This document shows, piece after piece, positions 2,708 to 62,313 of a stretch of 64,000 bases of DNA. Origin of the DNA: Octopus vulgaris (Eukaryota); assembly GCA_951406725.2 (NCBI GenBank), contig OX597821.1:33728001-33792000 (forward strand), given 5' to 3'. The notes below the pieces were generated by a model. The model did no database searches. It saw only the letters and a program-made list of their open reading frames with translations, and was not told the DNA's origin. Position numbers and translations under genes: made by a program. How positions within the stretch are numbered: the first letter of the stretch is position 1; the number at the start of each line of letters is the position of its first letter.

Positions 2708-2907
2708 ATTGGTTCCAAATTCTGGTACAAGGCCAGCAATTCCAGGGGAAGGGATAAGTTGATTACATTGACCCTACTTATTTTATCGACCTCGAGAGAA
2801 TGAAAGGCAAAGTCAACCCTGGCAGAATTTGAACACAATTGCAGAGACGGATGAAATGCTGCTTAGTATTTTGCCTGGTATGCTAACAATTCTGGGAGCA
2901 TGCTGCC

Positions 2908-2951
<44 letters not shown>

Positions 2952-3700
2952 CCTTTTTATTATAGGCACAAGGCCTGAAATTTTGATGGCAGGGCCAGTC
3001 AATTAGATCAACCCCTGTACGCAACTGGTAACTTAATTTACTGACCCTGAAAAGATGAAAGGCAAAGTCAACCTTGGCGGAATTTGAACTCTGAATGTAC
3101 AGATGAACTAAATGTCGCTAAGCATTTTGCCCGCCATGCTAACGGTTCTGCCAGCTTGCTACCTTAGATAATAATAACAATAATCCTTTTTACTATAGGT
3201 ACAAGGCCTGAAATTTGGAGAAAGGGGATAGTCGATGACATTAACCCCAGCACTTAACTGTTACTTATTTTATCAACCTGAAAGGATGAAAGGCAAAGTC
3301 AACCTTGGCAGAGAGAAAGACAAAATGCCGCTTAGCATTTTGCCCACTGAGGTAATGATTCTGCCAGCTCACTGCCTTAATAATAATAATAATAGTAATA
3401 ATAATCCTTTCTACTATAGGCAAAAGACTTGAAATTTGGGGGAGGGGGATTAGTCAATTACATCGATCTCAGTACATAACTGGTACTTAACTTCATTGAC
3501 CCCAAAAGGATGGAAGGCAAAGTTGACCTTGGTGGAATTTGAACTCGGAATGTAGTGTCAGATGAAATAGTACTAAGCATTTTGCCTGATGCGCTAATGA
3601 TTTTGCCAGCTTCCTGCTTAATAATAATAAAAATGATAATAATAATAATGATAATACTAATCTTTTCTACTACAGGCACAAGGCCTGAAATTTGGAGTTG
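2708..3700 (-). mobile_element. Head-to-tail array of 4-5 family B SINEs separated by (AAT)n
   Basis: Repeated unit 'aataat-ccttt.tactataggcacaaggcctgaaattt...gatgaaaggcaaagtcaacc...ctgccagct', all in the same orientation. Confidence 0.85.
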
Positions 3701-15010: not shown

Positions 15011-16882
15011 ATAACGCGCTACACACCTTCCTTCCAAGCACTGCTGTAAACAGCAGAAGTGAGCTAGAACGTTAAAACGTAGTGTGCATTCACAGCAGAG
15101 TTCAAAGTCAATCTGTGTCAAGTGGCTTCATTCTGCATGCATTAGCTTCGTTACTATGGCAACAGTCATCAGACCTTGTGTGTGTATAAAGCAGCAAGCT
15201 GGCAGAAACGTTAGCACACAGGGCGAAATGCTTAGCAGTATTCGTCTGCTGTTATGTTCTGAGTTCAAATTCCGCCGCGGTCGACTTTGCCTTTCATCCT
15301 TTCGGGGTCGATAAATTAAGTACCAGTTATGCACTGGGGTTGATGTAATCGATTTAATCCCTTTGTCTGTCCTTGTTTGTCCCCTCTATGTTTAGCCCCT
15401 TGTGAGCAATAAAGAAATAAGACCTTGTGTGTGTATGTATATATGTGTGTGCATGTATATATGTCTGTGTGTATATATGTATGTGTGTGTATAAAAAATG
15501 TGTGTACAAATAGATGTACAACTGCAATGGTCAAGTTTAGCACTCCATGTAGAGTGTCATAGTCCAGTCTGCTTCCAGTATAGTGGTTAAGCAACTGCTG
15601 TACTTAGTTGTATTACTTGTAATAGTATACAGAACAATCATATGAGAAATTATGATAAACACAAGTTTATATTAATTGTTCCCTACATGTGTTTAATAAT
15701 TTTGGTTGTTTGGAACTCTGCATTGGATTTGTGGAGGCACATGGCCTAGTGGTTAGAGCAGCAGACTCACGGTCGAGGGATCGCGGGTTCGAATCTCAGA
15801 CCAGGCAATGTGCGTGTTTATGAGCGAAACACCTAAGCTCCATGCACCCCCGGCAGAAGGTAATGTGAAACTTCTGCTGATTCTTTCGCTACAACTTTCT
15901 TTCACTCTTTCCTCCTGCATCTTGCAGCTCACCTGCGACGGACCAGCGTCCTGTCCGGGTGGGGAAACCTATACGCCAAGAAACCGAGAAACCGGCCCTT
16001 ATGAGCCGGGAATGGCTCGAGAAGGAACAAACAACAATTGGATGTGCCAAGTGCTGTTTGATGCTTAACAACAACAACGGATCATCAAAGAACACTAAGT
16101 TTTCAGTAACATAATTGAATAAAATGTTCCCTTGATGATCTGCAGCTGATAAAACTTCCAATTACACTCGGAAACATCCAGGGCAGTGTTCCAAACAAAT
16201 ACAATAGTGAAATGTGTGTCAGAACAAATATTATAAGCCTGTACTAGTAATTTCTTTTCTTTGTGTGTATGTGTGTATGTGTTTTGCTGGTGCCTATCAG
16301 TGAAAAGACTAAAATAAACTTATATATTTGAACATAAATACCTTGTGGTATTTATTGTGCCGGAGCTGTCCAGATAGTAATCCCTTGTAACACTTAACAT
16401 CAGAAATGCAGTCAACCAGTGATTGATCGATCCCATTGGGACCTGTAACTATTTACATTATTCACAAAATACAAGACACGGCAAATAACTGCCAAGAAAT
16501 ATTATCACTGTTGTTTGGCACTTGGCAATTTCAGATCAAATTAGCACAGTTTTGAGACAAGTGAATCAATCAGCTTCGTGGTGGTGGTAATGCTATGCAT
16601 GTGTCTCTTCTTTTTTAGTGTATACCGTATATACTTCCTTACTTTCTTCATTTTATTTTATGTTTTAATCATTTCATTAAATATAAACACCCATACTTTA
16701 TGTCTGTCTTTGTATTATCCCCTTCAACCTTTGCCCTTGTGGCAAATAAATGAAATCATCATTGTTATTAGTAGTAGTAATTTATTATTATTAGTAGTAG
16801 TTATAATTTAACCTTTAGCATTTAAACTGACCATATCAGAGCCCAATATCCTACCCGTTTTTATGTTCAAATTAGTCTCAAG

Positions 16883-18091: not shown

Positions 18092-18307
18092 ATGCCTTAC
18101 CCTAACCAACATACCATCCAGTCCCGGAAAGTTCTCAAGGAGGAGGTGCAGCTATTGAGAATGAACTACAAAATAGTTCGGAAAAATATGAGTCAAACAA
18201 TCTCAGCACTTGTCAAGTACTGTAATGAGAATGCACCCAATGACCCACTGATCCATCCGGTCAAGGAAAATCCATTTAAAGAAAAACGACTCTGCATAAT
18301 TTTGTGA
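18092..18307 (+). CDS. Heterotrimeric G-protein gamma subunit (GGL domain), 71 aa, single coding exon
   Basis: MPYPNQHTIQSRKVLKEEVQLLRMNYKIVRKNMSQTISALVKYCNENAPNDPLIHPVKENPFKEKRLCIIL has the G-gamma hallmarks: N-terminal helix, 'L..YC....DPL', 'ENPFKEK', and C-terminal CaaX box CIIL (geranylgeranylation type). Length is typical. A strong splice acceptor lies just upstream. The paralog cannot be assigned by eye. Confidence 0.93.
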   Translation: MPYPNQHTIQSRKVLKEEVQLLRMNYKIVRKNMSQTISALVKYCNENAPNDPLIHPVKENPFKEKRLCIIL

Positions 18308-20571
18308 ATGCGACACACATTTTGCACATTTTGTACGTATTATGTTTCTGTGTAATCTTTTTGTTTTAGTTATTGAGCTGTGGCCATGCATACATACATA
18401 TATATATTATGGGCTTCTTCTGGTTTCCTTCTACCAAATCCACTCATAAGGCTTTGGTCGGCGCGAGGCTACAGTAAAAGACACTTGCTCAAGGTGTCAC
18501 GCAGTGGACTGAACCCACAACTATGTGTTTTGGAAGTAAGATTCTTACCACACAGCCATGTCTGCGTCTTTTTTATGGTTTTTCTTTTTTACTTTTATTA
18601 TTATTTTTTAAAGTCTGGTACTTATTCTATTGGGCTTTTTTGCTGAACCACTAAGTTACAAACCAGTACCAGTTGTCAAGTGTTGGAGAAATGAGTGACA
18701 GACACATACACATAAACACACACACATACACATGTATATTTCGGTCTTCTACACAGTTCCATCTACCAAATTTAATCACAAGGCATTGGTTGACCTTGGG
18801 CTATAGTAGAAGACACTTGCCCAAGGTGTTGTGCAATGGGATTGAACCCAAAACTGTGGTTGCAAAACAAGCATTTTTTGTTGTTTTTTACTTAAAAGAT
18901 ACTCTTATATTGGTTTCAGCCTTTGACTGTGGCCATGCTGGAGCTCTGATATTAAGTGTTTAGTTATATCAGCACTAGGGTAAAGATTAACGACCTCTTT
19001 TACCATGACCGTGGGATTGCACCTAGAAAGTTCCCCTCCTAAGCACAAGTTCAGACAAGATTGCATATGGAAGACCAGTTGTCGCCCATGCATACCAGCC
19101 TCCTCTCACCATATTATCCAAGGGAAAGGCAAAGGGGCCGATACAGCTTGGCACCAGTGACCTCACAACTCATTTCTTCAGCTGAGTGAACTGGGGCTAC
19201 GTGAAATAAAGTGCTTTGCTCAAGAACACAACACACAGCCCAGTACAGGCATTGAACTCACTACCTTATGATGGTGAGCCTGATGCTCTTTAACAATTGA
19301 TCAATGCACCTTCACACACACACACAAAGAGTAAAGAACCCCTTTGGTCATGAATGACCATGGGATTGCACCTAGAAAGTTACCCCCTGAGGCACAAGTC
19401 TGGGCAAGGTTGTATATGGAAGACCAGCAGCTGCCCATGCATACCTATTTCTTTATTACCCACAAGGGGCTAAACATAGAGGAGACAAACAAGGCCAGTA
19501 ATAGGTATTAGGTCGATTACATTGACCCCAGTGCGTAACTGGTACTCATTTAATCGACCCCGAAAAGATGAAAGCAAAGTCGACCTCGGCGGAATTTGAA
19601 CTCAACGTAACGGCAGACGAAGTACCGCTAAGCATTTCGCCCGGCGTGCTAACGATTCTGCCAGCTCACTGCCCATGCATACCACCCTTCCCTCATCATC
19701 CCACCGATGTTATCCAAGAGTAAGGCAAAGGGACCGATACAGCTTGGTACCAGTGATGTTGCAACTCATTTCTACAGCTGAGTTTACTGGAGTAGCATGA
19801 AATAAAGTGTCTTGCTCAAGAAAACACATAGCCAAGTCCTGCAATTGAACTCACTACTTCATGATGGTGAGCTTGATGCTCTAACCACTGAGTCATGCAC
19901 TCAGGTATATCAACACTAGCATTCAGTCTGGTTTTATTTTACCAATTTCTATTTATCAAGTCATTAAGAACTATATAACAGACACTAATTTGGAGGAAAA
20001 TTAGATGCGAGAAATTTTCAGTTGATTAAATTCTTCAATTTAGTTTTGATTAATGAATTGCTTGTTCCTGTAATAACTGTTTAGAATGTTGTAGCAGTAC
20101 CGAATGATGCGGAGTGGTCAGGGTACTATCTATTGTGCATTAGTACTGTTGCTGCTGCTGCCAGTACTGCTACTGCTATTAGTGGTGGTGGTGGTGGTGG
20201 TGGTGGTGGTGGCAGTATTGGCCAAGGTTGCTGTATTTGGAGCATCATTGCTGCAGTGGAGTCACATGGCTTAGTGGTTAGTGTCGGACTCATGATTGTA
20301 AAATTGTGGTTTCGATTCCTGGACTGGGTGACACATTGTGTTGTTGACGAAAGCATTTCATTTCATGTTGCTCCAGTCCACTCAGCTGGCAAAAAAGAAA
20401 ATCAGTAACCCTGTGATGGACCGGCATCCCATCTGGAATCTAAATTTCATGGAAACCAGGAAACTGACCCCTTATGAGTCAGCGTGACTTGAGAACGTAA
20501 CTTGACTACTTGCTTTACATCATTGCTACTGCTACTACTACTACAACTATTACTACCAGTATTAGCTAGGG

Positions 20572-26451: not shown

Positions 26452-26770
26452 AGATATCATGTGATGGTCATACAAGCAAGATTGTTTATTTTTAGCCTGC
26501 TATGAAAACCATGTTTGGATATGAGGAAGTATTACCTTGCTTGGAAACAAGTGAGAGTTGGTGACAAGAAAGGCATTTATCTGGCTGTATAAAATTTGTT
26601 TCAACAAATTCTGCCTGAAAAAGGCAACAAAACCTGAAACATCATTTAAGCTTTTACTTAAAAAAACAAGTAAGGGTTAGTGACAGGATGAGCATCTGGC
26701 CATAAAAAAAATATGCCTCACTAATAAGTATTCATCTAATCCAGTGGTTCCCAAAGGTGGTACTGGGGGT

Positions 26771-26997
26771 CGGAGCTGGCAGAATCGTTAGCACGCCAGG
26801 CGAAATGCGTAGCCGTATTTCGTCTGTCGTTACGTTGTGAGTTCAAATTCCGCCGAGGTGGACTTTGCCTTTCATCCTTTCGGGGTCGATAAATTAAGTA
26901 CCAGTTACGCACTGGGGTCGATGTAATCGACTTAATACCTATGTCTGTCCTTGTTTGTCCCCTCTGTGTTTAGCCCCTTGTGGGTAATAAAGAAATA
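26771..26997 (+). mobile_element. SINE family B, young subfamily (tRNA-like head, conserved 'gcctttcatcctttcggggtcgataaa' core resembling the Nin/Sauria domain, LINE-like tail)
   Basis: B-box-like gagttcaaattcc; 12-bp TSD ggtactgggggt. Near-identical copies at 15188-15419, 19446-19668, 43718-43977, 47347-47550, 53514-53733 and 54390-54615. Confidence 0.85.
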
Positions 26998-42306: not shown

Positions 42307-42654
42307 CGCTTGTAGTTAAATAAGTACCAGTTGATCACTGTGGGTTGATGTAAATGATTTACCCTGCCTCCAAAATTGCTGGCTTTTGTGCCAATATTTG
42401 AAACCATTATTATTTATCAGCATCATCATCATCTGATTTGTTATTGATTTATAATTAATTATGGATAGATGTTGTCACACTCCAAGATCAATCAACAATC
42501 GACAAATGCCATATTTCTGTTAGTCTTGGGATTGGTTGCATCAATACTCTGTATATAGTAGTGTGTGTGTGTTCTAGTTTCCATCTACCAAATCTACTCA
42601 CAAGGTTTTTTGTTAGCCCAGGGCTGCAATACTCTGTATACCAATACTGTGTAC

Positions 42655-43333
42655 ATTCACCAAATCTTTTGATCCAGTAGCCTTGAATTCCATCTGGTCC
42701 CAGGGCCTTCCAGTTGCCCATTTTGTTGCTGATTTCTTTCACATCCCTAACTGAAATGACTAGTTCTGCCTGTTTTGGACAGATTTCTGTTTGTTCCATT
42801 TCTTGCAACCATTCAGCATCCTTCTTGTGCTCCTTGTCTTTGCTCCAGATGTTACTCCAAAACCTTTGACTTTTGACGTTATCCGGTATCAACATTTCAT
42901 CTGTACACTCTCCATTTATTTCTTTGTAGAATCTCTTTTGATCTACTCTAAATAATCTATTCTGGTGATAACCCTTCATTCTTTGGTCGTATCTTACTAT
43001 CTTTGCTTTCTTTTCAACGAGGTACTGTTTCAGTTCCTCCATTACCACTTTCAGGCCCTTTCTTTCAATATCATACTTCCTGTTCAGTGCCCTGTATTTT
43101 GTTCATTTTTAAGCTCCCCTTTCTCTTTTTGATCTAACACAGAAAAGTTCTTTGAGAGCATATCTAATCCTGCCCATATTCTTCTTTCCCACTATGGATC
43201 TTTTCTTTTGTCGTTCCCATTATTGTTCTTTTTCTTGACATCAACACCCACAGTTTTTGCTACAACAATACTTGCTGCCTTGATCAAATTATTTGTTTCT
43301 GTGATGTTTTTTGTTCTGATGTATTTTAGAATG

Positions 43334-43372: not shown

Positions 43373-44158
43373 GTCGTCACAATTGCCATCATAATACTAA
43401 TAATAATGATGATAATAATAATAATAATAATAATAATAATATAAGGCAGCAAGTTGGCAGAATTATTTGCATGCCGGACAAAATGCTTAGTGGTGTTTCA
43501 TCTGTTGCTATGTTTGGAGTTCAAATTCTGCTGAGGTCGACATTGCTTTTTATCCTTTCAGGGTTGATAAAATAAGTACCAGTTAAACACTGGAAGTGAT
43601 GTAATCGACTGATTCCCTCCCCAACATTGCAGTCCTTGAAATTATTATTATTATTATTATGTGAAGGGCTGGTAGAATCATTAGCACACTTGATGAAATG
43701 CTTAGCGGTATTTTGCTAAGATGGCGAGCTATAGGTGCCGAGCTATAGGCGGCGAGCTGGCAGAAACGTTAGCACGCGGGGCGAAATGCTTTGCGGTACT
43801 TCGTCTGCGTTACGTTGTGAGTTTAAATTCCGCCGAGGTCGACTTTGCCTTTCATCCTTTCGGGGTCGATAAATTAAGTACCAGTTACGCACTGGGGTCG
43901 ATGTAATCGACTTAATACCTATGTCTGTCCTTGTTTGTCCCCTCTGTGTTTAGCCCCTTGTGGGTAATAAAGAAATAGGTATTTTGCTTATTGCTATATT
44001 CTGAGTTCAAATTCCACCAAAGTCGACTTTACTTTTCATCCATTTGGGCTCGATAAATTAAGTACCAGTGAAACACTGGGGTTGATGTAATCAACTAGTT
44101 CTCTCCCCCAAAATTTCAGGTGTTGTGCCTTTAGTAGAAAAGATTATTATTATTATTA

Positions 44159-44690: not shown

Positions 44691-47600
44691 TTTTTTTGTA
44701 TATAGTACTCTTAATCTTTTACTTGTTTCAGTCATTTGACTGTGGACATGCTGGAGCACCGCCTTTAGTCGAGCAATTCGACCCCAGGACTTATTCTTTG
44801 TAAGCCTAGGACTTATTCTATCAGTCTCTTAGGTCGAACCGCTAAGTTACGGGGACGTAAACACACCAGCATCGATTGTCAAGCGATGTTGGGAGGACAA
44901 ATACATACACACACATACATTTATATACATGTGTACGATGGGCTTCTTTCAGTTTCCGTCTACCAAATCCACTCACAAGGCTTTGGTCGGCCCGAGGCTA
45001 TAGTAGAAGACACTTGTCCAAGGTGCCACGCAGTGGGACTGAACCCAGAACCATGTGGTTGGTAAGCAAGCTACTTACCACACAACCACTCCTGTGCCTA
45101 TGGTTTGAAGTTCTCAGTATACTTGTCAGAGGGGTTAATGCAATGACAAAGAGAGTAACAGAGAGAGAGATTCTCCCTGGAAAGTGCCCCCGTATATCTT
45201 TACGTTTCCTAGTGATTCATTTGCCCATGTCAGTTCTACTTCTCACACTCTCATTGCTTTTTCCAAAAAGTTGTTTATCTCCTCATCAAATCCAAGCACC
45301 CTCAGACACTCCAAGAGCCACCTGTGTGGTACATTGTTATAAGCCTTCCTGTAATCTATCCATCCAATGGCTAAGGTTGTTGGGTACATTACACAAAGGA
45401 AGATAGGATGGAAATCACTGCTATAGAACTGTGTTATCCAATGTGTCCTTCCTCTTTTTAAGAACTATGTGACACGAGAAGATTTAGTTGCTATTTTTAG
45501 CAAGTCTAATGACCTCAAACGACCTCCCTATAGAATCTTGGATTGAAGTGTGAAGTGGGGTGGCTATTGTTGCTGTAAGTCAGTTCATCTTAAAGTAGAC
45601 CAATGATATACCTTTAAAATATATGACAGAGAGAAATCTAGTACAGGAGATTTGGCTGCCATGTTTAGCATGTTGTTGCTTATCCCTGGGTCAACACTGA
45701 TTGAGAAGACCTACTATCAAAACCATTCCAGCCATGACCATCCTGTCTTTTTTTTGTTTGAGAAATTCTTACTTAATGAGCCATTCTTTTCTTTTAAGAT
45801 GGTACAATGTGCTTTGAAGGAGATTCAGATGTTCATCATCATCATCATCGTCGTTTAACATCCACTTTCCATGCTAGCATGGTTGGACGGTTTGACTGTG
45901 GGCTGGCAAACCAGATGGCTGCACCAAGATCCAGTCTTGATCTGGCAGAGTTTCTACAGCTGGATGCCCTTCCTAATGCCAACCACTCCAAGAGTGTAGT
46001 GGGTGCTTTTACGTGCCACCAGCACAGGGGCCAGTCAGGTGGTACTGGCAACGACTTCGCTTGAATTTTTACACATGGGCCAGTCATGCGGTACTGGCAA
46101 CGACCTCGCTCGAATTTTTTTAGAAAATCAAATGTCCACATATAGACTCTTCCAATGATTTATATCAAATGACTATATAGAGGCTTCTTTGGTGAAATAG
46201 ACACCGAGTTCAATGCTAACCTGAGAATGTGTGTGTGTGTATGTGTGCATGAATATAGCACTTAAAGATGACTGGAAAAGTTACTAAGTGAAAATTACTA
46301 AAGATGCTGGCATACAGTATGAGATTTCCAATCCTGAAAAGGTCACATACACAGTATATTATTGATTGTTTTCTTCCTGAAATTATTGTCTAAGTTAATT
46401 ATCGGTGCTGCTACAGTAAAGGATTTTTTTAAAAACCAGATTAGAGAGGAAAAAGAAAAATGAGCAATGTTCTTCTTTATTAGCCACAAGGACAAGACAG
46501 ACAGTTATTAAAGACTGATAGTAATTAAATATATATATGTGTACACACATACACACGCACACACACACACGCACAAACACATGCACTCACACACATATAT
46601 GTATGTATATATTTAAAAGGATTATGACACAAAAAGAAGAAAAAGGAAATAAAAAGAATAAAGAAGAACAACAAAATCTTTGTGACACAACTTTAATTAA
46701 AGACCAGAAGTAAATTAAATTGATAATTAGAAAACAGGAAAAAATGTCATTCTCCTCCTCATATTCAATACTGCCACCCACACCACCACTGCCGTCACCA
46801 CCACCACCACCACCACTAGCTGCAGCAGTATGACTATTATTATCCTATCATCATAACTACAGCGAGTGTTACCACCATTATTAACTCCCGCTTAACAACT
46901 GTTTTCCATGTTGCTAAGTGTTATTTTTTTGAAATTTATTTTATACATCTAATTTTTGTACACAACAGCATCTCTGGTTACAGGTTTCCAATACAGCAAT
47001 CATTGGTTTGCAGCAACGACAATGGTAAGAGCGACATGGGAGTGTCCATGTAATTCAGGCTGAACAAATACCACAAGAGGTATTTTTGTTTTGAAAGCAC
47101 CAGCTTATTGGATTTCTCACAAATCGTTATATCTTTCCATGAAAGATATAACTATCAACTCACTGTTTAAATATTAATGAAGCTATAAATAACCCTTTCT
47201 ATTATATGCATGGGCCCTGAAATTTGTGGGGGGGGAGCTGGTCAATTACAATGGTACTTATTTCATTGATCCCAAAAGGATGAAAGGTAAAGCTGACCTT
47301 GATAGAATTTGAACTCACCGTGTAAACAGCCAAAAGAAATACTGTTTAAGGCAGCAAGCTGGCAGAAACATTAGCACGCCGGGTGAAATGCGTAGCCGTA
47401 TTTCGTCTGCCGTTACGTTCTGAGTTCAAATTCCGTCACGGTCGACTTTGCCTTTCATCCTTTCAGGGTCGATAAATTAAGTACCAGTTACGCACTGGGG
47501 GCGATGTAATCAACTTAATACCTATGTCTGCCCTTGTTTGTCCCTTCTATGCATACCATTCTCCTCTCTCCATGCTCACCGATGATATCCAAGAGAAAGG

Positions 47601-53325: not shown

Positions 53326-54351
53326 ATAATAATAATAATAATAATAATCCTTTCTACTATAGGCACAAGAACTGAAATTTTGGGGAGGGGACTAGTCGGT
53401 TATATTGACCCCAGTGTTTCACTGGTACCTAATTTATCAACCCCCGAAAGGATGAAAGGCAAAATTAACTTCAGCAGAATTTGAACTCAGAATGCAGCAA
53501 CAGGTGGAATACCTATTTCTTTACTGCCCACAAGGGGCTAAACACAGAGAGGACAAAAAAGGGCAGACAAACGGATTAAGTCGATTACATCGAGCCCAGA
53601 GCGTAACTGGTACTTAATTTATCGACCCCGAAAGGATGAAAGGCAAAGTCGGCCTCGGCGGAATTTGAACTCAGAAGTAATGGCAGACGAAATACGGCTA
53701 CATATTTCGCCCAGCGTGCTAACGTTTCTGCCACCACTAAGCATTTCATCCAGTGTGCTAACAGTTCTGCCAGCTTGCCGCCTTCATAACAACAACAACA
53801 ATAATAATAATAATCCTTTCTACCATAGGTACAAGGCCTGAAACTTTGGGGGAGGGGGCTAGTTGATTACTTCGATCCAGGGGATGAACTGGTACTTATT
53901 TTATCAGCCCCTAAAGGATGAACGGCAAAGTCAATTTCAGCAGAATTTGAACTTTGGGGGAAAAAAGACAGACAAAATGCTTAGCAGACAAAGTGCTGCT
54001 AAGCATTTTGTCTGGCATGCTAATGATTCTGCCAGCTGACTGCCTTATTAATAATAATAATCCTTTCTACTGGAGGCACAAGGCCCTAAATTTGGGAGGT
54101 GGGAAGGGGACTAGTTGATTACATTGCCCCCCAGTGTTTCACTGGTACTTAATTTATCGATCCCAAAAGGATGAAAGGTAAAGTTGACCTCGGTGGAATT
54201 TGAACTCAGAACATAGCAGCAGATGAAATACCATTGCACCCAGTGTGCTAACGATTCTGCCAGCTTGCTGCCTTCTTGATAATGATGATAATAATAATAA
54301 TAATAATAATGCATTGATGGCATGCACTGCTCTCACTCAATAATGATGATG

Positions 54352-54393
<42 letters not shown>

Positions 54394-54782
54394 TTTTTTT
54401 ATTTCTTTATTACCCACAGGGGACTAAACATAGAGAGGACAAACAAGGGGATTAAGTCGATTATATCGACCCCTGTGCGTAACTGGTACTTATTTAATTA
54501 ACCCTGAAAGGATGAAAGGCAAAGTCGACCTCGGCGGAATTTGAACTCAGAATGTAACGGCAGATGAAATACAGCTAGGCATTTCGTCTGGCGTGCTAAC
54601 GATTCTGCCAGCTCAATAATAATAATAATAATAATGGTTTCAAATTTTTGCACATGGTCAGCAAGTTTAGTGAAATTTGTAAGTTGATTACATCGATCCC
54701 ACTGCTCCGTTGATACTTATTTTTTGACCCTGAAAGGATGAAAGGCAAAGTTGACCTCAGTGCAATTTGAACTCGGAACATA
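53326..54782 (-). mobile_element. Head-to-tail array of ~6 family B SINEs separated by (AAT)n
   Basis: Same unit and polarity as 2708-3700; includes a nested young copy at 53514-53733. Confidence 0.85.
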
Positions 54783-54796
54783 AAGTGATACTAATA

Positions 54797-54833
<37 letters not shown>

Positions 54834-54858: not shown

Positions 54859-55682
54859 AGTCAAGATGAAGAGCACGATTCGATTGTATGATATTTTATT
54901 AATTGAAAAATATTTCAACAGTACGTCTGTCTTTGTCAAGTTCGAAATGAACAAGAGAGGTAAGCCCTGTTCATTGTGCAACAACATGAGTGAAGTGAAT
55001 TATATCAGAAATCATAACAGAAATGTTATGATTTATATAGAAGGTGGAACATTTAAAGATTCCCATGTACGCTGCAGAATGCACGAAACACAACTTAATT
55101 TATGTTGGTTGTACAACAGAACAATTAAACAAAAGGTTTAATGGGCACAGATTCAACGTCAGGCACAATAACAGTAGTTCGACAGAACTTGCTGAACATT
55201 TCGTTTCAAGCAGCTGCAATTTTGAAGAAGACTTGAAAGTACATATTCTCAGAAAATATTCTGAATCTGCTTCACTTTCACTTCTCAGAATGTATGAGGA
55301 GAAATATGTTTGCTGGTTATTAACATCATGCCCTGGAGGAATGAATAAGATGGCAGGAGAATATCATCAAATTTATACAAAACTGTTTGATTAAATATCC
55401 TTTTTTCTATCTTTTACTTTCCTTTTTTTTCTGTCGTCTTCTTTTTACTGTTTTTTTGTCTTTTTCTTTTTGTCTGTTATAAAATTGTAACTTAAAAACT
55501 GATGATGTCATTCCGTCAACATGTGGACGCTGGTTGCTCTCGTTCATACTTTACGTTTAAATTTCTGTAATTTTGAATTTTTACCACTTCTTATTTTGAA
55601 CTTGAGAAAGACAGACGTACTAATGAAATATTGTTCAGCTAATAAAATATCTTATAATCAAATCGTGCTCTTCGTCTTGACT
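54859..55682 (+). mobile_element. Penelope-like element fragment: frameshifted GIY-YIG endonuclease flanked by ~95-bp inverted repeats
   Basis: Joining two frames gives 'KPCSLC...GGTFKDSHV / YAAECTKHNLIYVGCTTEQLNKRFNGHR...ELAEHF...YEEKY...PGGMN'. Arms 54859-54955 and ~55587-55682 are diverged reverse complements. CTGATGA at 55499-55505 in the 3' region. Confidence 0.8.
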
Positions 55683-56020
55683 GTTTACCTTTGTGAAGAG
55701 TTATGTCAATCCTTTTAAAATAACAATAATAATAATAATAATAATCAATTCTTTTTTATTGGCCACAAGGGCTGACACGCATGATTACATAAAGGGACAA
55801 GACAGGACGAAAGGTTACAAAGGGTTTTGCCGTTTTTAAAAACATCGAGTAAAAATCTTTATAACAACTTATAAAATTCAACAATGAAAAACTCCCAAAA
55901 GGGGGAGACGTCTCGAAAGGTTCCTGGTGGAAAAAACCCTACAAAAGCCAACGGGAGCCTGGTCTAAAAAGGGGGTGTAGAGAGTCCCCTTTCTTCTCCT
56001 TTTGTATTACCTTTTTGAAA

Positions 56021-58357
56021 TCACAGGCGAAACCTGAGAACTGGTCCATTTATACAGGCCAGTCTCGCACAATTCACCCACCTGTCATAAAACTTGCTAT
56101 CGGACAGCACTTTCCTCTCTAACCTCATCTTCCTTTTCAAGTGAAACTTGAAAAAGTTGATGAGGCCTTGACCAAAGAGGAAAGTGTCTGTCTTTAGCCC
56201 TTTCAAACGAGTCCACCACACCACCTCTTTCGCCACAGCCACTAGGCACAAGAAAACGGCCTCGCCCTCCTTGTTAAAGGAGGTCGGCGGGGCAATCTTC
56301 ACTATGGATTCGGCCGATAGTCGGATCCGTCCTACACGTGACAGTAGCTGTTCGACATAAACCCATATTTCAGCAATACTCGGGCACTGGACGAGTGCAT
56401 GCAGAACGGTTTCGTCGTCCTGGCAACACCTCGGGCAGGCCCGGCTGACGGCACTTCCGTGCCGGTAGAGTTTATCCCGAACAGGCAGAGCCCCTCGGTA
56501 GCACTGCCAAGCGAGAGACCTCTGGAAATTATCCATCGGCCCCGGCCCGAAAGTCCTCCCGAACAGACCGCTCAGTTCGTCGTCTTCAACGCCTAGAGTT
56601 TCCCCGAGAACGTCGTCGCATTTTTCCTCCACTAACCCTCTATAGAACGCTAGAGTGGAGCTGTAACCGATCGCATTGCCCGCCTGGCGGAGGGCGGAGA
56701 GAGCTTGACGGCACTCGAGGTGCCAAGCGCCCTTTCTCGGTCTACGTTTGATCCAGGTCTGCAGCTCCGTCAAAGAGACGAGCTGCGGAAAATCGCGTCT
56801 GACAAAAGACGACCACACCTGTTCACCGTCTAGGAAGCGCTTGAGATGCCGCAGCCTGAGCGCATGTCTGCGCAACAGCAACCACGGCATTCCAAGGCCT
56901 CCGTTCAGCGGTCGTTGACAGCAGATGGATTGCCTGACCAGTGGCACCTGACCCTTCCACAAAAAGTCGAAGAGCAGACGTACCAGCTTGGCCAACCAGC
57001 GGTCGGGACAAGGGACAACGGTCAAGCGGTAATAGATGACGGATGCGATGTACGCATTCGCCACCTCCGCTCGACCTTTCAGGGACAGCTTCCTCTCGGC
57101 CCATTTCTGGGTGAGACGTGCCACCCTGCTCGTCACCTCTTCCCAGTTCTTATCCACCTGGAGGTCCGGACCGAACCAGACCCCGAGCAGTTTAACGGGT
57201 CCGTCTGTCCAGCGCCCTACGACGCTGTTGGACGGCATGGGCTTGCCTCTCCAGGTGCCCAGTTGCAAGCCCACAGACTTTTCCGCGTTAATCTTTGCTC
57301 CTGTCACCGCTTCGTACTGGTTTAGCGTCTCGCCAATCAGGCCAATGTGCCTGTGGCTCGACACCACCACGGTGACGTCGTCGGCATAGGCAGACACGCT
57401 GTTTCCGCCTCCTAGATCGCGCGGGATACCCCTCAAAGCCTCCAACTTGCGCAGTAATGGCTCGAGAGTCAAAATGTACAAGAGGGAGGAGAGAGGGCAT
57501 CCTTGGCGGACCGAACGCGAGATGTCGAACGGTTCCGAAAGGTGACCGTTCACCCGTATCACCGAGCAGATGTTGCTGTATAAAGCAGCGATCCACCCGC
57601 GGAAGACTGGACCGAAGCCGGCTGCCCTGAGGACAGCTGCCAGGTACCGATGGTCGACTCTATCGAAGGCTTTACTCTGATCCAAGTTGATCAAAACCCC
57701 ACCCGCGCCAGCGTCGTTACCCACCCTCTCTATGATGTAGCGCATGAGATGGAGGTTGTCGTGTATCGACCTGGTCGGCACGGCGCATGTCTGCGTCTTG
57801 CCGACCAGCTTGTCCACGACAAGCGCCAATCTCTTGGCTAGCACCTTGGCCAAAATCTTCAACTCTGCATTGAGCAGAGTGATGGGCCGGAAATTCCCTA
57901 TAACGTCCCCCTTGTTTGGGTCCTTCTTTAGCAAAGCCACCACCCCTCGACAGACAAAAGCAGGAATTCTCCCGTTTTGCTGCCAGTTGCAGTAGACGTT
58001 TGCCAACAGGTCCGCAAACAAGTCTGGCATTGAAAAGTAAAGCTCGTAGGGCAGACCATCCAAACCCGGCGATCTACCTCTCGTGCAACTCTTCATCGCT
58101 TCCTGTACTTCCCAGGCAGATATCGGTCCTTCGCAGCACTCTGCCTCGCTGTCCGAGAGTTGCGGCAGTCCGTCCAGGTACACACCGAAGTCTGTACCGT
58201 TGGTGTCCGTTCCACCGCTCGTCCCAAACAGTTGAGCAAAGTGCCGCTGAAGCACCGTACACATCTGCTTCGGTTGGGTAACCCGCGCCCGTTCTGGTCC
58301 ACCAAAGACCGAATGGTTGCTCTGTTGCCTCGCTTCGCCTCCGCCACGCGGGCCCAT
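56021..58357 (-). CDS. LINE ORF2 C-terminal half: reverse transcriptase and C-terminal zinc finger (homology begins ~58285)
   Basis: Motifs RSPGLDGLPYE, FRPITLLNAELKILAK, LINLDQSKAFDRVDH, VRQGCPLS, AYADD, KLLGV, GGLG, and CPRC..DETVLHALVQC. Confidence 0.95.
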   Translation of the reverse strand: MGPRGGGEARQQSNHSVFGGPERARVTQPKQMCTVLQRHFAQLFGTSGGTDTNGTDFGVYLDGLPQLSDSEAECCEGPISAWEVQEAMKSCTRGRSPGLDGLPYELYFSMPDLFADLLANVYCNWQQNGRIPAFVCRGVVALLKKDPNKGDVIGNFRPITLLNAELKILAKVLAKRLALVVDKLVGKTQTCAVPTRSIHDNLHLMRYIIERVGNDAGAGGVLINLDQSKAFDRVDHRYLAAVLRAAGFGPVFRGWIAALYSNICSVIRVNGHLSEPFDISRSVRQGCPLSSLLYILTLEPLLRKLEALRGIPRDLGGGNSVSAYADDVTVVVSSHRHIGLIGETLNQYEAVTGAKINAEKSVGLQLGTWRGKPMPSNSVVGRWTDGPVKLLGVWFGPDLQVDKNWEEVTSRVARLTQKWAERKLSLKGRAEVANAYIASVIYYRLTVVPCPDRWLAKLVRLLFDFLWKGQVPLVRQSICCQRPLNGGLGMPWLLLRRHALRLRHLKRFLDGEQVWSSFVRRDFPQLVSLTELQTWIKRRPRKGAWHLECRQALSALRQAGNAIGYSSTLAFYRGLVEEKCDDVLGETLGVEDDELSGLFGRTFGPGPMDNFQRSLAWQCYRGALPVRDKLYRHGSAVSRACPRCCQDDETVLHALVQCPSIAEIWVYVEQLLSRVGRIRLSAESIVKIAPPTSFNKEGEAVFLCLVAVAKEVVWWTRLKGLKTDTFLFGQGLINFFKFHLKRKMRLERKVLSDSKFYDRWVNCARLACINGPVLRFRL

Positions 58358-59454
58358 CGAGCGGCTCTAGTCCCCTCCCCGCTTAGCGAGCGTGCCTTAG
58401 CTCTGACAACGCAGCCCTCGTGTTTGGCGTCGAAGTGTTGGTCGAGGGCCAACCTTGCCGCCAACACGTCGGTCGCGATGCCAGTGTCAAGAGCCTCGTC
58501 TAGTTTCTTAACTAAATCCCGCTCTCTCTTCCTACGTTCAATAGCTAGAGTCTTACTATACCTAATCGACTCTACTCTAATTGCTCTCTTGAGGGCAAAC
58601 CACCAGTTGTTGTTGATGATTGCCCCCGTGAGCGCCCGCTTAACTAGTAAACTAATCCGGTCTCTGTAAGCTTTGCACGCCGTTAACGACGCGTTCAGCT
58701 TCCAGTAGCCGGGTCCCTGTCTATGTAGCCTATCTAAGTCGACCGTACAGATCACTAATTTGTGGTCCGTATATTCGACTAGGTGGAATTGTGGACACCC
58801 TACGCTGTCCTTATCCGCTGGCCTACAAAACACTCTATCTAAGTACGATCTAGACGACCCGATGCGGTTTGTCCAAGTCCACATTGGCACATTCGGGTTG
58901 TCTAGTCGAAACCTGTCGGACAGCTGAAAGCGGCCGAGTAGGTTGGCGAGGCTCTTGCACCCTCCCCCTCTCCTATCAGACGCTCCCCTGCCCACCCGAT
59001 CGAAACGTTCGTCTAAGACAGCGTTCCAATCCCCAACTAGCACTAGAGTGCGTGACGTTCCCAGGAAAACTTCCAGACGTTTGAAATAATCCGACTGCCC
59101 TGCTCCTGTCGGAGCGTAGGCAGCCAGCAGTCTGAAAGCACCGCCGTCACTACCGTCGACGTCGAGGACCACCAACTTACCTTCCGGATCCAAGAAGACT
59201 GTCCTTATTTTCAGGTCCAGGCCCTTCCGAAACAACACCGCAGTACCACCACCGCCCGCTCCCGGCCGACACGGAGATAGAAATATCTCGTATCCGCCGA
59301 AAAGGGCTGCGAGTTCCTGCGGGTCGGAGAGCCTGGTTTCACTGATGGCTGCTACATCCACATCATGAAACCTCAGGTCGTTTAACAGGTGACCCTGTTT
59401 CCAAGGTGACCCGAGGCCTCTCACATTCAAGCAACCGATTCTAAGATTTGCCAT
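58093..59454 (-). CDS. LINE ORF2 N-terminal half: apurinic-like (APE) endonuclease plus linker; homology ends at ~58285 (frameshift)
   Basis: Motifs LNVRGL, ISETR, YAPT, LVGDWNAV, SYLDRVF, TDHKLV, and GPGYWKLNASL (typical of L1/Tx1). Confidence 0.92.
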   Translation of the reverse strand: MANLRIGCLNVRGLGSPWKQGHLLNDLRFHDVDVAAISETRLSDPQELAALFGGYEIFLSPCRPGAGGGGTAVLFRKGLDLKIRTVFLDPEGKLVVLDVDGSDGGAFRLLAAYAPTGAGQSDYFKRLEVFLGTSRTLVLVGDWNAVLDERFDRVGRGASDRRGGGCKSLANLLGRFQLSDRFRLDNPNVPMWTWTNRIGSSRSYLDRVFCRPADKDSVGCPQFHLVEYTDHKLVICTVDLDRLHRQGPGYWKLNASLTACKAYRDRISLLVKRALTGAIINNNWWFALKRAIRVESIRYSKTLAIERRKRERDLVKKLDEALDTGIATDVLAARLALDQHFDAKHEGCVVRAKARSLSGEGTRAARWARVAEAKRGNRATIRSLVDQNGRGLPNRSRCVRCFSGTLLNCLGRAVERTPTVQTSVCTWTDCRNSRTARQSAAKDRYLPGKYRKR

Positions 59455-59494: not shown

Positions 59495-61000
59495 CTACTT
59501 ACTGTTGTTGGTGGTGGGGGTGGCTCCCTTGTGCTTTTGCACGGGTGCTTCCACAATGTTTTTGTAAAGTTTCTTCGAGAAACTTTTCCCTAGCGATCCC
59601 ACATCGTTAGGGAATATTTGTTTGATTTCATCATATGTTTTTGCATTTATTTTTATTGTGAGAATGTGTGCTGGTGGTGTGTTTTGTGTTGGTATGATGA
59701 AATCGGTTATATTTGTACTAGTTTTGTTTTTTAAGTACTCCACTAGTTTTTGGTTCTTTGTGTTTATTGATGTAATTGTGTCTGTGTGTGTTTGTGTGTG
59801 TGGCAGTGGCAGTAGTGGTGTCGAAAGTGTTGTTGTTGTTTGTTGTTGTGAGTGTGTGTTGTTGTTGTTGTTGTTGTTGATGTTGGGAAGCACTATTTGT
59901 TCGTGCTTCCCCTGTAAATCTTTTTGTTTCTTCCTCCTTTTCTTCTTTGGAGGCACTATACTCCATTCTCCTTTGTTGGAATCAGAGCTCGCACAATCCG
60001 ACTCTTCATCCGGCAAAGGAATGGTTGAGGGGTCTGCTTCAGTAGCAGGACGAAAAGTTTCTGGTTCCACCGGTATCGGTGGTGCCGCTGCTCCTGTTAC
60101 TGTTGATGTCGCTGCTGTCGACCTTCGAGGTACTGGTGTCGGTGTTGGTTTGGTGGTGGTTGTCGGTGTTGGTTTGGTGGTGGTTGTTGTTGTTGGAGGT
60201 GGTGTTGTTCGTCTTGGTGCTGGTGTTGGTGATGGTGTTGGTGGTGTGGCAGCCTTTGGTTTTTCTTGCTGTTTTTGTTGTTTCTGTTGTTGTTGCTTGT
60301 GTTGTTGTTGTTGTTGTTGTTGTTGTTGCTGCTGCCTCTTGCTATACTCCTCCATTCTCTTTTTTTGAATGGGGCAGTCCCTTTTTAGGTGGCTTTCGCT
60401 ACTGCAGAGGAAACATTTTGGCTTTCGCCCCTCTACAATAACATTTAGCCTGGTCCCATCCAGCAAGATGACAAAGTCAGGTATGGCATTGATGTTTTCC
60501 TGCTGGATCTGTACCAGCAGTTGAATACCCATGCCTGACCAGTTCTTTTCTCGTACCCTCCGAACATTCAGAATAGTGGCAGTGTCCTCTATGCCATAGA
60601 GGACAGCCGCCACTAGCCATGAGATTTTCTGTTCGGGGGGTATTGTGCTTATAGTTATTTTTTGTACCTTACGCCCGAGGTACGTCGGGACGAAGAACAA
60701 ATGTTCATTTTGCAAGGGCGAAATGGCGTTCGCCCTTGCAAGCTCCTCTGTTGGGAAGCGAACCTCCACGGTTCCAAATCGCTTCCCTCTTGTCACATAG
60801 CTCTTCTGGCCCCAAATGGGCTTCAGAGCCATCTCCAACTGTTGTGGTGTGGCGTTAAACAATCTTTTAGTTTTCTTTTCGAAGACTTTATAAAAGATTG
60901 TTCTTTTGCTTGTCTCTTGTGTGAGTTGTTGAGGTGTGTTGAGGAAAACACTGTTCCCCTCCTTTCTCAACAAATCTTGTGCCATTTTTATGTCCTCCAT
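59495..61000 (-). CDS. LINE ORF1p (RNA-binding/chaperone) with CX2CX4HX4C zinc knuckle; true start may be upstream at 61360
   Basis: CFLCSSESHLKRDC knuckle, RRM-like 'RFGTVEVRF', NLS-like PPKKKRRKK, polyQ, Pro/Thr-rich and polyN low-complexity tail; directly upstream of the APE ORF. Confidence 0.85.
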   Translation of the reverse strand: MEDIKMAQDLLRKEGNSVFLNTPQQLTQETSKRTIFYKVFEKKTKRLFNATPQQLEMALKPIWGQKSYVTRGKRFGTVEVRFPTEELARANAISPLQNEHLFFVPTYLGRKVQKITISTIPPEQKISWLVAAVLYGIEDTATILNVRRVREKNWSGMGIQLLVQIQQENINAIPDFVILLDGTRLNVIVEGRKPKCFLCSSESHLKRDCPIQKKRMEEYSKRQQQQQQQQQQQHKQQQQKQQKQQEKPKAATPPTPSPTPAPRRTTPPPTTTTTTKPTPTTTTKPTPTPVPRRSTAATSTVTGAAAPPIPVEPETFRPATEADPSTIPLPDEESDCASSDSNKGEWSIVPPKKKRRKKQKDLQGKHEQIVLPNINNNNNNNTHSQQQTTTTLSTPLLPLPHTQTHTDTITSINTKNQKLVEYLKNKTSTNITDFIIPTQNTPPAHILTIKINAKTYDEIKQIFPNDVGSLGKSFSKKLYKNIVEAPVQKHKGATPTTNNSK

Positions 61001-61612
61001 TGTAATTTCTACATCTTCCGAAATTTGCTTCGCAGCAGAAGCAAAATCGTTAGAAGCTTTTACAGTTTTTTGTTGGTTCTTGTCTGTGTTTGTGTCTGTT
61101 ATAATTTTCTTTACCTCCCCCTTCGGTACAGCATCACTTGTTGAAGGCAGAGGGGGAAATCAAGAGTGACGTCGAACGCGACGTCCTGGCATGCATTCTC
61201 CTTTTGAACCGAGCGCGTGCTCTCCGGTTCGGAAGGAGGAGCTTTGTTGCCTTTTACGGCCTGAAATGGGTTGTACGTAACCCGTGACGTTATTTTTTTT
61301 TGTTCTTGTAGGGGGTGTTGCAAGAAGGAGGGAAGAGCCAGCAGCTCGTTTCAGTGCCATTTTGTAATGTGTGTGTGCAAAAAATGTCAATTTCAAAAGG
61401 ATAGACAGTAATTTCACCCCGAATGGGGCAAAATTTCGCCCAACCGACGAGCTCCGCAAGAAGCCGGTCGGTTTGGCTACAAAAATATTTAAAAATATTC
61501 AAACTTATCAAATGAATTCCAATGAAATTGGTGTCAAATTCACGGAGCTGATTCACGTACGTCCATCGGCGTCGGAAAGAATAATAATAATAATAATAAT
61601 AATAATTACAAT

Positions 61613-62313
61613 AATCTTTTCTAATCTAGGCACAAGGCCCAAAATTTTTTTGGGAGGAATTAAGTTGACTAGATCAACCCCAGTGCGCAACTAGTACTTA
61701 ATTTATTTATCCCAAAAGGATGAAAGGTAAAGTCGACCTCGGCAGAATTTGAATAATTATAATAATCCTTCCTACTATAGGCACAAGGCCTTGAATTTGG
61801 AGGGAGAGGTCAGTCAATTATATCGACCCCTGTATGCAACTGGTACTTAATTTATTGACCCTGAAAGGATGAAAGGCAAAGTTGACCTCAGCAGAATTTG
61901 AATAATAATAATAATCCTTCCTACTATAGGCACAAGGCCTTGAATTTGGGGGAAGAGGCCAGTCAATTAGATCGACCCCTATATGCAACTGGTACTTAAT
62001 TTATTGACCCCGAAAGGATGAAAGGTAAAGTTGACCTCAGATTAATTTGAACTTGGAACATAAAGACAGATGAAATGCTGCAAATACTGATAATAATAAC
62101 GAAGATGATGATAATGTTGATAATAATTATAATAATAATCCTTTGTACTATTGGGACAAGGCCTGAAATTTGCGAGGGTGGGGTAAGTCGATCACATTGA
62201 TTTCAGTGCTCATCTGGGACTTATTGACCCTGAAAGAATGAAAGGCAAAGCTGACCTCAGTGTAATTTGAACCCAGAACGTAAAGACAGATGGAATGCCG
62301 CTAAGTACTTCGC
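61613..62313 (-). mobile_element. Head-to-tail array of 4 family B SINEs adjoining the LINE 5' end
   Basis: Same unit and polarity as the other arrays; (AAT)n spacers. Confidence 0.85.

Follow-up and report, generated by a model that had tools for sequence, protein, structure and literature searches.

A short 3´ tail with a predicted CUUGU hairpin is shared by an L1/Tx1-group LINE and young SINEs of Octopus vulgaris

That short interspersed elements (SINEs) borrow the tails of long interspersed elements (LINEs) is a textbook principle. A stretch of 64,000 nucleotides (nt) of the Octopus vulgaris genome (assembly GCA_951406725.2, contig OX597821.1, positions 33,728,001 to 33,792,000; hereafter the window) holds a full-length LINE of the L1/Tx1 group and 27 copies of the core of a SINE family, here called SINE-B, and raises the question of whether the two are such a pair. 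The initial annotation of this DNA had proposed that the LINE shares its 3´ tail with SINE-B and drives its mobilization, and the three tail sequences that it quoted are all present as written. From sequence comparison, we think it rather probable that LINE and SINE-B are joined in a stringent partnership at the level of the lineage, probably via a sister family of this LINE, in which the shared tail would be recognized by the LINE machinery. The tails compared with SINE-B are those within the window, from the one LINE and from two orphan stubs that carry the tail without a SINE core (Table 1).

When the last 100 nt of the LINE were aligned with a consensus of the tails of six young SINE-B copies, the local alignment scored 37 (z 5.2); it spans 59 columns with one 11-nt gap, and 38 of its 46 aligned bases are identical. 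None of 2000 dinucleotide shuffles scored as high (one of 1000 in a repeat test), and among 2242 other 100-nt windows outside SINE-B just three outscored the LINE tail, all of them inside the two stubs. The pattern CCTTGTGG-NN-AATAAA, with at most one mismatch, was found nine times in the window where 0.10 were expected, namely in the six young SINEs, the LINE and the two stubs, and all nine occurrences of this terminal 16-base motif lie at element ends. The similarity between the tails of the LINE and of young SINE-B is above chance, as the initial annotation had claimed and as the comparison with shuffled controls that it called for bears out.

Other properties of the match weigh against a partnership. 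Once AATAAA is removed, z falls to 2.8 and 28 of 2000 shuffles reach the score (p about 0.014), and with gaps counted the identity is 38 of 59 columns. The block upstream is of low complexity and allows two alignment registers; the short insert reported earlier in the LINE tail is present in the local alignment, but MAFFT aligns the ends without it. Because the upstream block is repetitive and the MAFFT register differs, the secure part of the match is the last ~25 bases. The LINE matches the old SINE-B tail weakly (z 2.5; 54 of 2000 shuffles, p about 0.03), so that a tail shared with the whole family, as first proposed, stands for the young subfamily and is marginal for the old one; the link to the old subfamily, which appears to consist of one 7-mer and one compensated pair, is weaker than that to the young. 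CCTTGTG itself has 40 sites in the window, many of them in an unrelated SINE family in which it is unpaired. This abundance, the two registers, and the fact that the comparison was chosen after the match had been seen would all suit a likeness that arose by convergence or chance between two pyrimidine-rich ends that each contain a poly(A) signal and a widespread 7-mer. We regard such an origin as very unlikely in view of the shuffles, of the 100-nt windows, among which tail stubs alone score higher, and of the 16-base motif at the very end of both elements.

A hairpin, C-[CUUGU]-G, is predicted at the ends of the LINE, of both SINE-B subfamilies and of the two stubs. A stem-C[CTTGT]G-stem pattern with a stem of at least 3 bp occurs 17 times in the window, versus a mean of 1.2 in 30 shuffles, and 16 of the 17 sites lie where SINE-B copies, the LINE or the stubs end. 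The stems read GCC/GGC in the LINE, GCCC/GGGU in young SINE-B, AGGC/GCCU in old SINE-B, UGGC/GCCA in a third tail variant, and UUUGCC/GGCAAA and GUC/GGC in the stubs. At the level of the consensus, double changes (n=2) separate the LINE (GCC/GGC), the young SINE (CCC/GGG) and the old SINE (GGC/GCC) around an invariant loop. RNAalifold finds the same hairpin unprompted, and its covariation exceeds that of 500 out of 500 shuffles and of all slid controls. A candidate for the conserved stem-loop that the initial annotation had suggested looking for is predicted in LINE and SINE tails alike, at the scale of this small hairpin. In an unbiased count, 14 of the 27 SINE-B copies keep all three inner pairs (five of six among the full-tail young copies) and nine keep two. 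Pair probabilities in context are 0.60-0.67 for the LINE, 0.45-0.79 for three young SINEs, 0.06-0.39 for three old ones, and 0.96-1.0 and 0.05-0.14 for the stubs.

The weight that the hairpin can bear is reduced by several results. Fifteen of the 17 rows in the covariation analysis had been picked by the hairpin scan and the copies are related, so that the 96.8% pairing is inflated and the independent double changes come to two. The stem in the LINE has 3 bp (-2.8 kcal/mol), and folding of the whole tails is no more stable than that of shuffles (z 0.78 for the LINE, -0.60 for the young SINE); a large conserved secondary structure in the tail was rejected for this reason. A covariance model of the tail, run over the window, returned no additional stubs, and old tails reached at most 18 bits. 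If the hairpin is taken to be marginal, the tail could still be homologous and yet owe its conservation to 3´-end formation, as a module of a UGU-rich upstream element and AATAAA, with a relaxed L1/Tx1 enzyme reading the A-rich end and the SINE tail acquired by template switch. AATAAA and the A-rich end do carry much of the score, as the fall in z indicates, and SINEU, which is moved by Tx1, lacks its driver's tail and ends in poly(A) (PMC4494074; statements from cited papers, here and below, hold for their available text). We nevertheless judge this explanation unlikely, given that the CUUGU loop is invariant while the stems change in pairs across five tail types, and that long poly(A) is missing from the LINE and from five of the six young SINE-B copies. 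To our knowledge, a SINE that relies on RNA polymerase III (pol III) for its transcription has no obvious use for AATAAA.

For the partnership to hold, it matters whether the tail is a property of the LINE family. Contigs of four public runs (X1, X16, X19 and X3, from four studies and under four organism labels; four of the 24 listed) were aligned to positions 55560-56560 at a likeness of at least 80%, and in all four runs contigs cover 55764-55831. Depth summed over contigs, which is not a copy number, is ~20,000 at 55764-55831 in X1, falls to 237 in the adjacent upstream bin and is 8,500-35,000 higher up in the untranslated region (UTR); the dip just upstream of the tail is similar in X16 and X19 and smaller in X3. 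Because cover just upstream drops far in three of the four runs, the tail is better conserved than the adjoining UTR. These tails are of the LINE type and not of the SINE type, since the spacer of the LINE tail is covered and the 11-nt deletion is in none of the 12 gap rows listed out of 20; at position 55801 the majority base is SINE-like, at 56-71% of depth in all four runs. One X3 contig, with four substitutions and six gaps, spans 55800-56055 and joins the stop of ORF2 with the tail's edge. As a point on the other side, no contig among those listed for the four runs reaches from ORF2 to the hairpin. A SINE remnant private to one LINE copy, a possibility that the initial annotation had named as fatal to its proposal, was rejected on the strength of the tail-matching contigs in all four runs, and the tail is by these contigs a feature of the LINE family. 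Over the end of ORF2, summed depth in X1 rises to 1.3 million, an indication of many sister families whose UTRs are different.

The LINE is young and nearly intact. A single frameshift near 58.3 kb, seen as a frame change in tblastn, interrupts ORF2, and both pieces are free of in-frame stops. The observed/expected CpG ratio of ORF2 is 0.97 versus 0.53 for the window, and 66-80% of the sampled 31-mers of the LINE are present in 20 public runs from 10 studies; no RNA run is listed among the public runs containing them. Because CpG in ORF2 is undepleted and the 31-mers recur in this way, we consider the LINE family to be young. The organization of an L1-group element, that is, an ORF1 and an ORF2 with an N-terminal apurinic/apyrimidinic endonuclease (APE), a reverse transcriptase (RT) and a C-terminal Cys/His motif, is found in the LINE. 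A probable placement in this group is supported by a PDB profile search with ORF2, in which human L1 ORF2p (E 1e-110 over 857 positions) ranks far above R2 (E 1e-36), among matches that include no CR1, L2 or RTE reference. The best named relative of ORF2 among the matches listed is a protein of Argonauta hians (67% identity). No named Tx1 protein is among the 240 ORF2 matches listed or in the Atlas, and the Tx1-clade label is one that we assume from motifs. In ORF1, the CCHC knuckle is matched by zf-CCHC at E 0.067, under the cut-off, and CCHC/ZCCHC3-like clusters score 0.89-0.91; the start given for ORF1 is putative, with an in-frame ATG that lies 120 codons upstream from its first methionine (61360-61160, minus strand) and is cut off by a stop near 61160.

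The (ATT)n endings described in the initial annotation hold for old SINE-B, but the young SINE has none, and the (ATT)n of the LINE may be target rather than tail, because the LINE (one copy) is inserted into an old SINE-B copy, in its (ATT)n tail, and is flanked by ATT runs at both ends. Perfect ATT/AAT runs make up 0.66% of the window, and the single LINE copy sits in an ATT run. The 3´ flank of the LINE at 55560-55695 is a diverged copy of another high-copy repeat.

SINE-B is ~230 bp long, with A/B-box-like motifs and, in three of the six young copies, target duplications of 12-17 bp, features of a tRNA-derived SINE; ARAGORN and Rfam gave no tRNA call on it. The six full-tail young copies are 92-99% identical to their own consensus and end in AATAAAGAAATA, without an (ATT)n tail. 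The 15 old copies show less identity (71-89%); most of them end in GAAAGG(ATT)n, and a head-to-tail arrangement is frequent. The other six comprise one 3´-truncated young copy, three with the third tail variant and two that are decayed. The third variant (core anchors 2833-, 42268+ and 54771-) ends in ...GAAACC(ATT)n and has the same loop on its own stem. The LINE and young SINE-B are both young, and this, together with the target duplications around three young copies, is consistent with a partnership.

The two subfamilies also differ in where they are found. Stacks of old copies joined by (ATT)n lie at 2775-3700 and 53330-54800 as well as next to the LINE, which suggests that old SINE-B inserted into ATT microsatellites, each other's tails included. 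GGTA follows four of the six young copies (3´ junctions 19446, 26997, 43977 and 53514), and in two of them the duplication starts with GGTA on both sides; GGTA is a candidate target preference of young SINE-B, of the kind that Tx1-clade elements are known to show. A second abundant SINE family (7653, 9101, 12542, 13427, 23980, 28250, 29357, 44979 and others), which we take to be probably the CORE-type OR1/OR2, carries GCCTTGTG near its end without the stem. Octopus tRNA-derived SINEs named OK, OR1 and OR2 were reportedly described by Ohshima and Okada in 1994; SINE-B presumably has a domain of the Deu/Nin type and is, we assume, probably the OK or tRNA-Deu type family. A Meta domain in the SINE-B core was rejected after a by-eye comparison with BivaMeta-SINE1 showed no likeness (supplement of PMC4824008).

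Which LINE family supplied the tail is a separate matter, and here the window offers points against the LINE itself. The first orphan stub matches the young tail colinearly and free of long gaps, at 46 of 56 positions (z 10), and surpasses the LINE as a match; the second matches it with deletions. Insertion signatures differ as well: the young SINE has no ATT tail and is at GGTA in four of six cases, and the LINE (one copy) is in an ATT run, like many old SINEs. With these results, and with many related ORF2 families, the earlier claim that this very LINE family is the driver of SINE-B is not supported in the form given. Neither a SINE core nor a coding remnant was found upstream of either stub. 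The first is likely to be the 3´ stub of a sister LINE family or of an older truncated SINE, and both stubs may be 3´ ends of sister LINE families.

A stub that beats the LINE as a match to the young SINE, with no coding sequence to place it, could also stem from a LINE of another clade (Dong-R4, CR1 or RTE, each plentiful in octopus and active there of late), which would then be the true partner, the L1/Tx1 family having taken its tail from that LINE or from the SINE; the differing target signatures are in keeping with this. Recent insertions in O. vulgaris number 1129 for Dong-R4 and 787 for CR1 versus 421 for L1-Tx1 (PMC13282606), and CR1, CR1-Zenon, L2 and Nimb are the partners so far known for SINEs of molluscs (PMC11481361). 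We hold a partner from another clade to be improbable all the same, in that the tail is fixed throughout the LINE family, where it is better conserved than the UTR next to it, and the first stub has the GCC/GGC stem of the LINE and not that of the SINE. AATAAA and duplications of 12-17 bp, for their part, fit L1-group elements. In 111 of the 192 short frames, a set from which frames beyond 44.3 kb and some repeat frames were excluded, Pfam found no RT or endonuclease that would mark the 3´ end of a rival LINE, and tblastn over the window with nine ORF2 relatives gave the LINE as sole match. A decayed internal fragment at 42488-43260 (minus strand), without Pfam support and with its 3´ end absent, resembles what we take, by its motifs, to be a Dong/R4-type LINE.

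Age ties the LINE to the young subfamily, target ties it to the old one, and the hairpin ties it to both. Most simply, these ties can be read as those of a lineage of related L1/Tx1 families that share one design of tail but differ in target, and SINE-B would have acquired tails from it on more than one occasion. In the partnership that we favor, SINE-B likely captured a tail of ~55 bases from a member of this L1/Tx1-group lineage, probably from a sister family rather than from that of the LINE in the window, and the capture would have run from LINE to SINE by template switch. The pol III SINE RNA would present the hairpin to the ORF2 protein, which would grip it, a step modelled on zebrafish and eel L2 (PMC4176376), and the ORF2 endonuclease would nick the target, leading to target-primed reverse transcription of the SINE RNA. 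The old, (ATT)n-ended subfamily keeps the hairpin only, and may have been served by an earlier or an ATT-targeting relative. As a more tentative extension, which we put forward as possible, octopod L1/Tx1 LINEs might be stringent via the CUUGU hairpin, and the dominant octopus SINE might have re-captured this hairpin from successive relatives, ATT-seeking for the old subfamily and GGTA-seeking for the young.

Table 1. Features of the LINE, SINE-B and the orphan stubs, numbered from the first base of the window.
Feature	Position	Strand	Description
Full-length L1/Tx1-group LINE	61579-55746	-	5.8 kb; within (ATT)n tail of an old SINE-B copy
ORF1 frame	59495..61159	-	554 codons; one CCHC knuckle; low-complexity Q/T/P-rich tail
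ORF2	56021..59454	-	APE endonuclease, RT, C-terminal zinc-binding motif (PF03372, PF00078, PF13966)
LINE 3´ UTR	55746..56020	-	275 nt
Tail common to LINE and young SINE-B	55752..55808	-	Pyrimidine/GT-rich block, hairpin, AATAAA, A-rich end
Predicted hairpin	55762..55772	-	3-bp stem, CUUGU loop; in LINE tail
(ATT)n run at LINE 3´ junction	55728..55745	-	Tail, target or target duplication
Young SINE-B	15194..15419	+	17-bp target duplication
Young SINE-B	19446..19672	-	15-bp target duplication starting GGTA
Young SINE-B	26770..26997	+	A/B boxes of tRNA type; central domain; shared tail; 12-bp target duplication, first bases GGTA
Young SINE-B	43750..43977	+	Within head of an older SINE-B; then GGTA
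Young SINE-B	53514..53733	-	In older SINE-B head, at same site as 43750..43977 copy; then GGTA
Young SINE-B	54399..54616	-	In ATT tail of an older copy
Old SINE-B copies	61580..62312	-	Head to tail via ATT runs; last ATT run adjoins LINE 5´ end
First orphan tail stub	16691-16758	+	No SINE core; 6-bp CUUGU hairpin, AATAAA; T-rich upstream
Second orphan tail stub	46468-46534	-	CUUGU loop, weak stem, AATAAA

The window as a whole is rich in microsatellites and SINEs. It also contains a host exon at 18092-18307 (plus strand) for a G-protein gamma subunit (PF00631, E 4e-13), with a CaaX end and the whole coding part in one exon; a retrocopy was rejected on finding a splice acceptor upstream. Outside the window, an ORF2 alignment scan of JGI metagenomes gave no usable relative, the tail pattern has 120 loci there, at none of which LINE or SINE homology extends past the pattern itself, and scans of GTDB genomes and viral contigs for related DNA yielded nothing usable. 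A 69%-identical ORF2 fragment (protein P0005), recorded as part of a bacterial metagenome-assembled genome, lies on a contig of 1.8 kb and is most likely host contamination.

About 11.6% of the Octopus vulgaris genome consists of SINEs, and an annotation of 2026 counts 13 recently active L1-Tx1 families without naming SINE partners in its available text (PMC13282606). Octopus SINEs have been classed as tRNA-Deu and tRNA-Core (PMC8967140), and no partner LINE for an octopus SINE is given in the available part of a table of 58 pairs (PMC3747384). Neither a SINE/LINE pair from octopus nor a tail-sharing Tx1 pair was found in the literature searched, although Repbase, Dfam, subscription papers and supplements may hold one. 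Among molluscs, the closest comparison is with bivalves, whose SINE/LINE tails extend over 35-61 bp at 72-95% identity, with CR1, CR1-Zenon, L2 and Nimb as partners (PMC11481361, PMC4824008, PMC4758252). The match between the LINE and the young SINE-B tail falls in this range if the gap is left uncounted, and SINE-B resembles the bivalve SINEs as a molluscan SINE that swaps tails on a constant central domain. It differs in its proposed partner, the bivalve ones being CR1, L2 or Nimb; neither L1-Tx1 nor octopus is mentioned in the available main text of PMC11481361.

The crocodilian SINEU was assigned to Tx1 (Tx1-Mar) by its target preference, and no LINE shares the 3´ end of SINEU-1 in the available account (PMC4494074). 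Both cases would tie a SINE to Tx1-clade machinery and to a preferred site in other repeats, as in the two young SINE-B copies at one site of older heads; SINEU, however, has small nuclear RNA heads and poly(A) and is linked by target, whereas the octopus link is the tail. In the L2 elements ZfL2-1 and ZfL2-2 of zebrafish, and in UnaL2 and UnaSINE1 of eel, ORF2 binds a 3´ stem-loop whose loop sets the specificity, and related LINEs share the stem-loop (PMC4176376). Those are L2-clade elements with longer stems, proven by experiment, whereas the octopus hairpin is predicted from its sequence.

The contrast drawn in the initial annotation, with the L1 clade as relaxed, was too strong, as stringent L1-clade pairs are known in maize and sorghum (LINE1-1_ZM with ZmSINE2/3) and in Chlamydomonas (L1-1_CR with SINEX-3_CR) (PMC3472496, PMC3747384). 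In the survey of 58 pairs just three SINEs have L1 tails, all of them from plants or algae (PMC3747384), and in the literature searched recognition of the tail in the L1 group is so far reported from grasses and a green alga only. The octopus pair, if true, would be the first case in an animal of an L1/Tx1 LINE and a SINE linked through a structured tail, and as an animal outgroup it would make the poly(A)-only recognition of mammalian L1 a derived state. Whether the L1 group had stringent recognition as its ancestral state could be tested directly on such a pair, and the CUUGU hairpin would provide an unusually small RNA handle for binding studies. As in maize and Chlamydomonas, an L1-group LINE and a tRNA-type SINE share a short 3´ end with a hairpin, in octopus a predicted one, whose loop is conserved and whose stem is variable and, in octopus, apparently compensated. 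The octopus elements differ in belonging to an animal, in their stem of 3-6 bp, in a CUUGU rather than a UCU loop, in having no long poly(A) or poly(T) end, and in a tail match that is weaker than the ~80-nt one of Chlamydomonas.
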